Origin: Escherichia coli
Lineage (GTDB): Bacteria; Pseudomonadota; Gammaproteobacteria; Enterobacterales; Enterobacteriaceae
Assembly (NCBI RefSeq): GCF_048403405.1
Contig: NZ_CP183129.1
Length of the DNA stretch: 64,000 bases
Reading direction: 5' to 3' (one strand)
Shown: positions 3,001 to 6,000 of the stretch, piece after piece
Layout: each line of letters starts with the position of its first letter
Position numbering within the stretch: the stretch's first letter is position 1
Program-made: the position numbers

Positions 3001-6000
3001 GATGTTGCGGATATCTTCCCTTATGCTTCGTCGCTGTGGGTCGGTGACGGGGCAACGTTCAAGACTGGCGCGGATCAGGATATTCAGTCAATTGATGTTA
3101 CTTCCAGCGGCACTATCGACATCAGCGATGGTACGGTTTTGCGCCTGACCGGGCAGGATACTTCCGTCGCCCTTAATGCCTCACTGTTTAACGGCGATGG
3201 GACGCTGGTGAATGCTACTGATGGCGTGACGTTGACAGGCGAGCTTAATACCAACCTTGAAACTGACAGCCTGACCTATCTTGCCGACGTGACGGTTAAT
3301 GGTGATCTGACCAATACGTCCGGTGCGGTTAGCCTGCAAAATGGCGTCGCTGGCGATACGCTGACGGTAAACGGTGATTATACCGGCGGCGGTACGCTAC
3401 TGCTCGATAGCGAATTAAACGGCGATGACTCGGCAAGTGACCAACTGGTGTTGAACGGTAATACTGCTGGCAACACGACCGTGGTAATTAATCCCATTAC
3501 GGGTATTGGTGAGCCGACATCTACAGGTATTAAAGTGGTTGATTTCGCAGCCGAACCCACGCAGTTTCAAAACAATGCGCAGTTCAGTCTGGCGGGCAGC
3601 GGCTACGTCAATATGGGCGCGTATGACTACACGCTGGTGGAAGATAACAACGACTGGTATCTGCGATCGCAAGAAGTAACGCCACCATCGCCACCTGATC
3701 CAGACCCGACTCCCGATCCTGATCCCACGCCGGATCCTGATCCAACACCCGACCCGGAACCTACGCCTGCCTACCAGCCGGTGTTGAATGCCAAAGTTGG
3801 TGGATATTTTAATAACCTGCGGGCGGCAAATCAGGCGTTTGTGATGGAGCGACACGATCACGCTGGTGGCGATGGTCAGACGCTGAATTTACGTATTATC
3901 GGCGGAGATTATCATTACACAGCAGCGGGGCAACTGGCTCAGCATGAAGATACTTCTACGGTGCAGCTTAGCGGCGACTTGTTTAGCGGACGCTGGGGCG
4001 CGGATGGCGAGTGGATGCTTGGGGCGGTTGGTGGCTACAGTGATAACCAGGGCGACAGCCGCTCGAATATGACCGGAACTCGCGCCGATAACCAGAACCA
4101 CGGTTATGCCGTTGGTCTGACCTCAAGCTGGTTTCAGCACGGTAATCAGAAGCAGGGGGCCTGGCTGGATAGCTGGCTGCAATACGCGTGGTTTAACAAT
4201 GATGTTTCCGAACATGAAGATGGCGTGGATCATTACCACTCATCGGGGATTATCGCCTCGCTGGAAGCCGGGTATCAGTGGTTACCGGGGCATGGAGTGG
4301 TGATTGAACCACAGGCGCAGGTGATTTATCAGGGCGTGCAGCAGGATGATTTTACCGCCGCTAACCATGCGCGCGTGTCACAATCGCAGGGTGATGATAT
4401 TCAAACGCGGCTGGGTTTACACAGCGAATGGCGTACCGCTGTTCATGTCATACCATCATTAGATCTGAATTATTATCACGATCCCCATGCGACGGAAATT
4501 GAAGAAGATGGCAGCACTATCAGTGACGATGCGGTGAAGCAACGGGGTGAAATAAAAGTGGGAGTCACGGGCAATATCAGTCAGCGAGTTTCGCTGCGCG
4601 GCAGCGTGGCGTGGCAGAAAGGGAGTGATGATTTTGCCCAGACGGCAGGGTTTTTGTCGATGACGGTGAAATGGTAGCTGCTTTGCGCCCGGCATTGTAG
4701 CCGGATGTGGTGCGAGCACCTTATCCGGCTAACAATTTTATTTATTCTGCGTGTGCAGCATATAGTTCACATCGACGCCGGGGCCGAGCTTAAAGGAATT
4801 AGTGATCGGGTTGTAATGCAGCCCGGTTATATGTCGCTCTTTTAAACTGGTCTGATCCACCCAGCCCAGCAGTTCTGCCGGTTTTATAAATTTCTTCACG
4901 TCGTGCGTGCCTTTGGGCACCATGCGCAAAATATATTCCGCGCCAACCACCGCCATCAGCCATGACTTGCCGTTGCGGTTAAGCGTCGAGAAAAAGACAT
5001 CGCCGCCCGGTTTCACCAGTTGCGCACAGGCTCTGACCACTGACTGCGGATCGGGGACGTGCTCCAGCATCTCCATGCAGGTCACCACGTCATACTGCCC
5101 GGCATGTTTTGCCGCGTGCTCTTCCACGGTTTCCTGCACGTACTCTACCTGAATGCCACTTTCCAGCGCGTGCAACTTTGCCACCTGCAATGGCTCAAAG
5201 CCCATATCCAGACCGGTCACCGTCGCGCCTTCGCGCGCCATACTCTCGGCCAGAATGCCGCCGCCACAACCGACATCGAGCACCTTTTTGCCAAATAAAC
5301 CGCCAGCACGCTCGGCAATATAGCCCAGACGCAGCGGGTTAATGCGGTGCAGCGGTTTGAACTCACCTTCAAGATCCCACCAGCGGGAGGCGACAGCTTC
5401 AAATTTAGCGATCTCTTCGTGGTCTACGTTATGGTTTACCGGCGATTTTTCGGCATTCATTGGCACTTCTACTCCGTAATTGGCAAGACAAACGAGTATA
5501 TCAGGCATTGGATGTGAATAAAGCGTATAGGTTTACCTCAAACTGCGCGGCTGTGTTATAATTTGCGACCTTTGAATCCGGGATACAGTAGAGGGATAGC
5601 GGTTAGATGAGCGACCTTGCGAGAGAAATTACACCGGTCAACATTGAGGAAGAGCTGAAGAGCTCCTATCTGGATTATGCGATGTCGGTCATTGTTGGCC
5701 GTGCGCTGCCGGATGTCCGAGATGGCCTGAAGCCGGTACACCGTCGCGTACTTTACGCCATGAACGTACTAGGCAATGACTGGAACAAAGCCTATAAAAA
5801 ATCTGCCCGTGTCGTTGGTGACGTAATCGGTAAATACCATCCCCATGGTGACTTGGCGGTTTATAACACGATCGTCCGTATGGCGCAGCCATTCTCGCTG
5901 CGTTACATGCTGGTAGACGGTCAGGGTAACTTCGGTTCCATCGACGGCGACTCTGCGGCGGCAATGCGTTATACGGAAATCCGTCTGGCGAAAATTGCCC

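Follow-up and report, generated by a model that had tools for sequence, protein, structure and literature searches.

The Pro/Asp-rich tandem repeat encoded in the 64,000-nucleotide stretch of Escherichia coli DNA considered here (contig NZ_CP183129.1; the window) is an ordinary, previously annotated part of the surface adhesin YfaL and, as such, a known feature. Judging from its composition, its position and the predicted structure of the protein, the segment probably acts as a non-folding, extended and negatively charged proline-rich spacer that tethers the YfaL passenger to the pore helix, with its length variants representing tolerated repeat-mediated indels. The relevant features of the window are as follows:

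925..4677, + strand: yfaL/ehaC coding sequence (1250 aa plus stop), encoding an AIDA-I-family type Va autotransporter adhesin
3304..3636, + strand: autochaperone domain (aa 794-904), capping the beta-helical passenger at its C-terminal end (Pfam PF18883 AC_1, E=2.8e-18)
3655..3669, + strand: WYLRS motif (aa 911-915), conserved and bounding the spacer on its N-terminal side (80-sequence alignment)
3670..3768, + strand: whole Pro/Asp-rich spacer, aa 916-948 (33 residues), i.e., QEVTPPSPP, the repeat and a final P
3694..3765, + strand: four in-frame 18-nt units, encoding PDPDPT three times and PDPEPT
3790..3834, + strand: predicted pore alpha-helix, aa 956-970 (AlphaFold2 model residues 176-190)
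3880..4671, + strand: 12-stranded outer-membrane beta-barrel translocator, aa 986-1249 (Pfam PF03797, E=8e-33, aa 990-1228)

The naming of the gene as yfaL, as proposed in an earlier note on this DNA, is supported both by the score of its product against the NCBIfam equivalog NF007285 (2,774.7 bits; cut-off 1,459; residues 1-1250 of 1250) and by the 100% identity of window positions 3400-4100 (701 bases compared) to the annotated yfaL of E. coli VCSW7. In the annotation of that strain, yfaL is flanked by ypaB on one side and by ubiG-gyrA on the other, giving the chromosomal order ypaB - yfaL - ubiG - gyrA. Further ORFs in the window are found at 4738-5508 (- strand) and 5607-8234 (+ strand). 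An antisense ORF that overlaps the repeat (3861..3415; 148 aa, GTG start) was also considered as a possible gene but was rejected, given that its predicted product, rich in Arg/Ile/Trp, mirrors the proline codons and that nothing is annotated at this position in VCSW7, identical to the window over the compared stretch.

YfaL presents the architecture of a type Va autotransporter. The N-terminus of the protein (MRIIFLRKEYLSLLPSMIASLFSANGVAAA) looks like a signal peptide, that of K-12 YfaL being quoted as 28 aa long (PMC13101318). The beta-helical passenger, in which Pfam detects PATR and PMP repeats in addition to AC_1, ends in the autochaperone domain, while the C-terminal region comprises the 12-stranded barrel, preceded by a pore alpha-helix, the position of which is predicted. 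The protein also matched the autotransporter barrel model TIGR01414 (E=1e-112). In an AlphaFold2 model (overall pLDDT 93.4, pTM 0.89), the autochaperone domain was predicted as beta-strands with pLDDT values above 90, and the pore helix was followed by twelve long strands forming the barrel. Between the autochaperone domain and the helix, model residues 139-169, essentially corresponding to the spacer (136-168), appeared as coil, such that the spacer has no secondary structure in the model. As pLDDT block means here were 73-88, i.e., moderate rather than very low, the term 'disordered' is not strictly supported. When Foldseek was used, the YfaL barrel matched those of AIDA-I, EspP, BrkA, Hbp and NalP. 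The closest solved structure is the AIDA-I transport unit (PDB 4MEE; sequence E=6e-35), on which the predicted helix and barrel of YfaL superpose with a TM score of 0.93 and an rmsd of 1.6 Å. By contrast, AIDA-I contains some 15 non-proline residues (HLPTSDTRQYRPE...) in place of the 33-residue Pro/Asp repeat segment of YfaL. The earlier description of the repeat as separating the passenger from the translocator is thus correct and can be made more exact, with the repeat lying between the autochaperone domain and the pore alpha-helix that precedes the barrel.

At the sequence level, the spacer is bounded by conserved WYLRS and AYQP motifs. In the 80-sequence alignment, W131, Y132, L133 and S135 of the former are invariant or nearly so, and WYLRS is present in every homologue surveyed. 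Translation, Tandem Repeats Finder and shuffling all confirmed the repeat to be real and in-frame, as the earlier note had it, although its position (3688-3770) was slightly off: The peptide quoted, PPSPPDPDPTPDPDPTPDPDPTPDPEPTP, corresponds to nucleotides 3682-3768 read in frame with yfaL on the + strand, within the spacer at 3670-3768, and the units themselves span 3694-3765. Tandem Repeats Finder reported a period of 18, 3.9 copies and 75% matches (score 65). The degenerate pattern CCNGAYCCNGANCCNACN occurred four times in the 64-kb window, always within the YfaL repeat, and was absent from 2,000 codon shuffles of yfaL. Likewise, self-identity at a lag of 18 reached 40 of 54 positions at the repeat, whereas the mean over the gene was 15.5 (sd 4.2) and the second-highest value was 25. 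The repeat is, therefore, far beyond chance. Proline accounts for 16 of the 33 spacer residues (48%), as opposed to 1.3% of the remainder of YfaL, with Asp and Glu together contributing 27% of the spacer.

The units were also said to be nucleotide-degenerate, and this proved to be the case. Any two units differ at three to six positions, every one of which is a third codon position, and the units draw on all four proline codons. No exact direct repeat within the segment is longer than the 11-nt sequence GATCCTGATCC, found at 3715 and 3733. At the protein level, the three PDPDPT units are identical, and the fourth, PDPEPT, reflects a single Asp-to-Glu change.

The length of the spacer in E. coli was next addressed by comparing repeat number in two ranked samples of 60 genomes each among 5,419 complete genomes, together with counts in identity bands. 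In these samples, drawn by rank from a collection in which clinical and laboratory strains are over-represented, spacers of 33 aa accounted for about 66% of the genomes, those of 27 aa for 23%, those of 35 aa for 5-7% and those of 25 aa for 3%. Specifically, spacers of 33, 27, 35, 25 aa and other lengths were seen in 39, 14, 4, 2 and 1 genomes in the first sample and in 40, 14, 3, 2 and 1 genomes in the second. The 80-90% identity band, which corresponds to the class shorter by 18 nt, contained 1,268 of the 5,419 genomes. Overall, linker length took values of 21, 25, 27 (in two architectures), 33, 35 (in three variants), 37 and 41 aa, with linkers of 21, 37 and 41 aa and larger in-frame deletions being rare. 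The earlier suggestion that linker length can differ between strains thus holds, as repeat counts were not identical across the E. coli genomes compared.

Every linker indel was a multiple of 3 nt, with all 20 linkers examined being in frame, and such indels recurred on different allele backgrounds. At least seven distinct indel sites were found in the 99-nt spacer vs two in about 480 nt of flanking sequence, while substitution polymorphism was approximately two-fold higher in the spacer (19 of 54 ungapped columns) than in the flanks (85 of 481). At least 15 distinct spacer peptide alleles were seen among Escherichia sequences. In several instances, changes in copy number could be followed directly. 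Allele L013 has lost one of the two copies of a perfect 18-nt repeat present in L011, the flanks of the two alleles being 0.2% different. Perfect copies of the 12-nt sequence GACCCAACCCCC number one in L006, two in L010 and three in L024, and L018 corresponds to the O157-like allele minus one unit. The O157 allele presents a Pro-to-Gln change in unit 2. The linker peptide of YfaL/EhaC of K-12 (L004) is identical to that of the window allele and the synteny is the same, with the flanking DNA being about 6% diverged from the window. Among the genomes of the two ranked samples, a limited set, K-12 derivatives, O157:H7 strains and genomes carrying the 27-aa allele were each uniform in length. In E. 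coli VTB97022v, a 56-aa in-frame deletion removes the end of the autochaperone region and half of the spacer, with the gene still being annotated as intact, and a metagenomic variant, P0009, contains no spacer at all. The lone frameshift seen (strain N64) falls outside the spacer. Shigella sonnei short-read contigs were observed to end in or near the yfaL spacer.

As to the earlier view that the repeat is unlikely to be hypervariable by slippage, this stands for the window allele and for the population, where one length is found in some two-thirds of the genomes and the sampled K-12 and O157 genomes are uniform. It requires qualification for other alleles with perfect 18-nt x2 or 12-nt x2-3 repeats, in which copy number has changed. 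Repeat-mediated indels in the yfaL linker do, therefore, occur, on an evolutionary time scale.

To place the YfaL spacer in a broader context, 150 representatives of the family, clustered at 50% identity, were surveyed using a regular expression for both anchor motifs, which could be placed in 120. In these distant representatives, the spacer measured 13-109 aa (median 33 aa) and was usually proline-rich, with proline accounting for at least 25% of the residues in 93 of the 119 representatives with a spacer of at least 15 aa. The sequences themselves were unrelated, and many contained tandem repeats of their own. Both anchors were not matched in the other 30 representatives, including the YfaL-like P0121 (56% identical), where the start of the helix differs; nine of these 30 were inspected by eye and their spacers were proline-rich as well. 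In P0121, the spacer is about as long as in YfaL but made up of a different Pro/Asp/Thr/Val sequence, while P0120 contains only about 10 spacer residues. Such spacers are, accordingly, widespread among autotransporters having an AC_1 domain. When these sequences are compared, it is composition and approximate length that are conserved at the spacer position across the family, and not sequence.

A precedent for this arrangement is offered by E. coli TibA, where a 'proline-rich domain' (residues 627-677) lies between the junction region and the membrane domain (PMC3835316). As in YfaL, where the 48% proline spacer comes after AC_1, which ends at aa 904, and before the helix, which starts at aa 956, this segment follows the junction (autochaperone) region and precedes the membrane-embedded domain. 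The TibA segment is, however, about 50 aa long and of different sequence. Moreover, TibA is glycosylated and self-associating, whereas no glycosyltransferase is annotated adjacent to yfaL. In the available literature, the relevant papers naming both YfaL and proline do not mention the YfaL spacer, and experiments on it were not found.

Taken as a spacer, the segment would link the folded passenger, i.e., the beta-helix and its autochaperone cap, to the alpha-helix seated in the barrel of YfaL itself. Given its proline content, it may form a stiff polyproline-II-like stalk. A polyproline-II helix rises about 0.31 nm per residue. The stalk would thus measure at most some 10 nm for 33 residues and 6.5-12.7 nm over the range of 21-41 residues, and could keep the adhesin off the barrel and the LPS layer. 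During secretion, the same segment may provide slack for folding of the autochaperone domain outside the pore. Length variants would arise by rare in-frame indels between short direct repeats, via replication slippage or unequal exchange, with entire 18-nt or 12-nt units being gained or lost in some cases, and would be tolerated as the spacer depends only on its composition and approximate length. With its four units scrambled at synonymous sites and its exact repeats not exceeding 11 nt, the window allele should therefore be comparatively stable. Against the need for a stalk, the spacer appears to be dispensable in some relatives and variants, namely AIDA-I (some 15 aa), P0120 (about 10 aa), the VTB97022v deletion and P0009.

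These last examples also bear on a possible, if somewhat unlikely, alternative in which the main task of the spacer is to assist secretion, and not to act as a stalk once the protein is mature. Leading the passenger out of the pore, and unable to fold, the proline-rich spacer would form a hairpin or slack, with the autochaperone domain then folding outside and pulling the remaining passenger through. Such a role is compatible with the extended spacer proposed here, differing from it in emphasis, and agrees with the position of the spacer, which directly follows the autochaperone domain and precedes the pore helix, as well as with the distribution of similar spacers in AC_1-domain autotransporters. 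The truncated YfaL anchor used for surface display in biotechnology, moreover, keeps residues 786-1250, i.e., the autochaperone domain, the spacer and the barrel (PMC13101318). Nonetheless, AIDA-I and P0120 secrete, or are predicted to do so, with almost no spacer, and natural deletion variants exist. The heightened substitution polymorphism of the spacer, the concentration of indels within it, the 13-109 aa range of the family, the near absence of a spacer from some members and the annotation of deletion variants as intact could instead point to functionally neutral, low-complexity filler, where any connector would do and where the repeat and its length variants reflect unconstrained drift. 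This is unlikely, as the units are near-identical as peptide yet scrambled at synonymous sites, and retention of the PDPDPT peptide in the face of such scrambling points to purifying selection on the spacer peptide. Drift is likewise hard to reconcile with the independent recurrence of proline richness in 93 of 119 representatives, with the dominance of a single length class in the E. coli population and with the similar length and composition kept by P0121. At the other extreme, spacer length could be an adaptive, tuned trait, with the discrete length classes (21-41 aa) suited to how thick the O-antigen or capsule of each lineage is and so exposing or masking the passenger. This seems quite improbable; were it true, the recurrent gains and losses of units would be selected and not neutral, the potential reach of the classes would be about 6-13 nm, and the 13-109 aa range of the family would reflect the same calibration.

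Proline-rich repeat regions (GGxxP, PQP) that are polymorphic, with unit number differing between strains, are also found in Bordetella pertactin, a type Va autotransporter, where this variation has been linked to immune or vaccine pressure and where region 1 is a loop on the beta-helix. YfaL similarly contains a proline-rich tandem repeat of strain-variable unit number (L006/L010/L024, L013/L011 and L018), yet one that serves as a domain connector. That the YfaL spacer is a surface-exposed immunodominant epitope under comparable immune-driven, diversifying selection is very improbable. Surface exposure of a polymorphic proline-rich repeat, the 15 or more peptide alleles and the recurrence of indels on different backgrounds would fit such selection, but the variants are built from the same PDP/T elements and vary chiefly in length, spacer length is uniform within each of the sampled K-12, O157 and 27-aa-allele groups, and YfaL is reportedly poorly expressed under laboratory conditions. 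Serological data on the YfaL spacer were not found. A tandem repeat in an adhesin gene, with copy-number series of perfect 12-nt and 18-nt units, might also suggest a contingency locus, i.e., a tract prone to slippage by which YfaL is turned on and off or which changes quickly within a clone. Slippage of units of 6, 12 or 18 nt, however, cannot shift the reading frame; all 20 linkers are in frame, the N64 frameshift lies elsewhere and the longest exact repeat in the window allele is of 11 nt. With linker indels being in-frame only and the sampled K-12 derivatives and O157 genomes uniform, a phase-variation switch was rejected and is effectively refuted.

Beyond housekeeping, the probable role of the segment as an extended, non-folding spacer is of little importance. 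Although conserved in E. coli, the adhesin YfaL is poorly expressed; it also serves as a surface-display scaffold, and the tolerance of natural alleles for spacers of 21 to 41 aa, and even for larger in-frame deletions, hints that the spacer may be adjustable in length in display engineering. Differences in yfaL length between genomes mostly trace to the 99-nt spacer and are not to be taken for assembly errors or pseudogenisation. In the family survey, a proline-rich spacer where the autochaperone domain meets the pore helix proved to be the rule and not a peculiarity of TibA, a modest generalisation that introduces no new principle.

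Window positions 925..4677 (plus strand) comprise a single ORF of 1250 codons, whose product is matched over its full length by the NCBIfam YfaL/EhaC equivalog (2,775 bits; cut-off, 1,459). The annotated yfaL of E. coli strain VCSW7, found between ypaB and ubiG-gyrA, is 100% identical to window positions 3400-4100, and a search with these positions as query detected yfaL in 5,419 of 5,426 complete E. coli genomes. The pertinent features are as follows.

925..4677, plus strand: yfaL, single ORF, 1250 codons
aa 794-904: autochaperone domain (Pfam)
3670-3768, plus strand (aa 916-948): spacer, bounded by the conserved motifs WYLRS and AYQP
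3694-3765, plus strand: four in-register 18-nt units, encoding PDPDPT, PDPDPT, PDPDPT and PDPEPT
aa 956-970 (model residues 176-190): helix (AlphaFold2)
aa 990-1228: autotransporter barrel (Pfam)

The peptide described in an earlier note is present in the yfaL frame, with the positions given there (3688-3770) being only a few bases off. The units are scrambled at the DNA level, as also claimed, while the peptide is kept, with three being identical PDPDPT repeats and the fourth differing only by an Asp to Glu change. Indeed, the units differ from one another solely at third codon positions, each of the four proline codons occurs, and exact internal repeats in the window spacer reach 11 nt at most. 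Tandem Repeats Finder reported a period of 18, with 3.9 copies and 75% matches, and self-identity at a lag of 18 was 40/54 at the repeat, as compared to 15.5 +/- 4.2 gene-wide. All four matches to the degenerate codon pattern in the 64-kb window lie in the spacer, and 2,000 shuffles of the yfaL codons gave none. Half of the YfaL prolines (16/32) lie within the 33 spacer residues. The repeat is, therefore, more than chance.

The same stretch contains an antisense ORF (3415-3861, minus strand, 148 codons, GTG start) covering the spacer and its flanks that is almost certainly not a gene; its Arg/Ile/Trp-rich product mirrors the proline codons, and no annotation opposite the spacer exists in VCSW7, identical over the stretch compared. 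Six GATC (Dam methylation) sites are found at 3665-3739, five of these within 60 nt from 3697, the densest cluster among the 287 sites of the window, which are spaced 223 nt apart on average. This cluster is a by-product of GAT-CCN (Asp-Pro) codons; linker alleles carry from two to five such sites.

The position of the spacer was considered in an AlphaFold2 model of residues 781-1250, based on an 80-sequence alignment (pLDDT 93.4, pTM 0.89). Beta-strands extend through model residue 138, residues 139-169, corresponding to the spacer, are without secondary structure (mean pLDDT per block of 73-88, lower than anywhere else except at the N-terminal end), and the helix at 176-190 is followed by a 12-stranded barrel. 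The repeat hence lies between the autochaperone and the pore helix and barrel, in agreement with the proposed separation of passenger and translocator. In a Foldseek search, the best solved structure was the AIDA-I transport unit 4MEE (TM 0.93, rmsd 1.6 A), with the barrels of EstA, EspP, BrkA, Hbp and NalP coming next. Because AIDA-I, when aligned by sequence, contains only some 15 non-repetitive residues in place of the repeat, the YfaL repeat is an insertion-like connector joining the autochaperone cap to the pore helix.

When repeat number was compared across yfaL alleles from 20 genomes, linker length was seen to vary between strains, from 21 to 41 aa.

Linker length alleles (L-numbers, yfaL loci)
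21 aa: L013
25 aa: L003/L014 (-24 nt)
27 aa: L009/L011 (DPDPDPTPDPDPTPDPIP) and L018 (O157-like allele minus one unit), of unrelated architectures
33 aa: window; K-12 (L004); O157 (L005, P-to-Q change); Nissle (L006, different head, NPTPPP)
35 aa: L002/L015, L007/L017 and L016 (three tail variants, DPAPDPTP, EPAPDPTP and DPAPAPTP)
37 aa: L010
41 aa: L024

In addition, strain VTB97022v presents an in-frame deletion of 168 nt (56 aa; window 3551-3718), ending at its 3' side inside the repeat, through which the protein loses the last strands that follow the autochaperone domain, along with WYLRS and the N-terminal half of the spacer; this yfaL is still annotated as intact (3,585 nt). The metagenomic protein P0009 lacks any spacer. 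Class frequencies were near-identical in two samples of 60 genomes each, queried with the window (33 aa, 39; 27 aa, 14; 35 aa, 4; 25 aa, 2; other, 1) or the 27-aa allele (40, 14, 3, 2 and 1, respectively), although the samples were ranked rather than random and clinical and laboratory strains are overrepresented in the collection. The 'other' entries are the 21-aa and 41-aa alleles. The 80-90% identity band, held in the first sample by the -18-nt class alone, comprises 1,268 of 5,419 genomes, while 1,196 of 5,382 genomes match the 27-aa allele at 95% identity or above; such identity bands offer near-census support for the 27-aa class.

As reflected in flank distances, like changes recur on different backgrounds. 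L013, with flanks only 0.2% apart from those of L011, has lost exactly one copy of a perfect two-copy 18-nt repeat (CCTGACCCAACACCCGAT); L018, with O157-like flanks (1.4%), is one 18-nt unit short, the loss lying between GATCC microhomologies; L003, with window-like flanks (1.1%), lacks 24 nt; and on the Nissle-type background, GACCCAACCCCC is present once in L006, twice in L010 and three times in L024. Across the 581-nt span common to 20 sequences, at least seven indel sites map to the 99-nt spacer, all of lengths that are multiples of three, as opposed to two in the 480-nt flanks, one being a 3-nt insertion (L013) and the other a 1-nt frameshift (strain N64). Substitution polymorphism is also about twofold higher (19/54 spacer versus 85/481 flank columns). 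Judging from this concentration of in-frame indels, the spacer is a hot spot for indels over evolutionary time; a frame-shifting switch is ruled out. The close relatives sampled, K-12 derivatives and O157:H7, showed no linker variation, and the notion of a contingency locus is refuted.

The N64 lesion, in a CSF isolate whose yfaL is annotated as a frameshifted pseudogene, is a 1-nt deletion at the equivalent of ~3626, some 45 nt upstream of the spacer and outside the repeat; this may reflect either a true pseudogene or faulty assembly. Among short-read assemblies of Shigella sonnei, many carry a split yfaL (contigs L019-L022; proteins P0012, P0024, P0047, P0064, P0077 and P0119). N-terminal fragments share a start at aa ~303, preceded in P0077 by foreign sequence, and end variably, anywhere between ~46 aa ahead of the spacer and its middle, while C-terminal fragments start at a fixed point within the spacer (APTPAYQP...). 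Either an insertion sequence in the spacer or short-read coverage or assembly drop-out at the C-rich tract would account for this. The E. coli fragments P0056 and P0057 also end in the spacer.

Positions 3400-4100 are matched at 99% identity or above in only 8 of 5,419 genomes, most being at 90-95%; the matching strain, VCSW7, was isolated from Hong Kong soil and leaf-litter. The window flanks are nearest to those of strains with 25-aa and 35-aa linkers (1.1-2.3% different), yet the linker peptide is that of K-12, the flanks of which differ by ~6%. This mismatch hints that yfaL alleles may be mosaic and recombinant.

With the C-terminal 470 aa as query, a HMMER scan of 1.84 billion representatives revealed 2,082 relatives (E<=1e-10). 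Among the best 150, both anchor motifs were automatically located in 120, and the spacers between them span 13-109 aa, with a median of 33 and an interquartile range of 27-44. Of these spacers, 119 reach 15 aa or more; 93 of the 119 have a Pro content of 25% or higher, and 49 an Asp+Glu content of 20% or higher. Tandem periodicities of their own are seen in many, and P0082, P0170, P0145 and P0129 employ a near-identical PDPxPT vocabulary with an overall identity of only 35-40%. The spacers of nine representatives missed by the regular expression are proline-rich as well, including that of the YfaL-like P0121 (56% identical; VADVPDVDPTPDVTPTPDAPVTPDVPGVPSTPD). Since composition and rough length are kept while sequence is free, this is the signature of a spacer and not of a binding site. 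In the distant homologues P0098, P0100 and P0115, paired cysteines within a repeated motif (e.g., DPCLADPTLPGC ... DPCVVNPALPQC) suggest spacers that may be disulfide-stapled rather than simple Pro/Asp tracts.

What the analysis demonstrated is where the spacer lies, what it is made of, that no structure is predicted for it, that such spacers recur throughout the family, and that its length varies through in-frame, repeat-mediated changes. Going beyond this, the spacer would best be explained as an extended, acidic, polyproline-II-like tether, reaching up to ~10 nm for 33 aa at the textbook rise of 0.31 nm per residue. It would hold the passenger at a distance from the barrel and LPS and, during secretion, would leave the autochaperone slack in which to fold outside the pore. 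That the spacer mainly aids secretion is compatible with such a tether. Natural deletion variants and spacer-poor relatives are as would be expected of neutral filler, against which stand the conservation of the peptide despite synonymous scrambling and the recurrence of proline richness. For immune-driven antigenic variation, no evidence was found.

TibA contains a 'proline-rich domain' in exactly the YfaL spacer position (PMC3835316), and a truncated YfaL display scaffold retains residues 786-1250, spacer included (PMC13101318); no discussion of the YfaL spacer or its polymorphism was found in the literature searched. The repeat noted earlier is thus real and was correctly interpreted, and the spacer was already known as part of a well-annotated gene. 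What is new is descriptive, namely the spectrum and frequencies of linker alleles, the repeat-mediated origin of the variants, and the generality of such spacers across the family.
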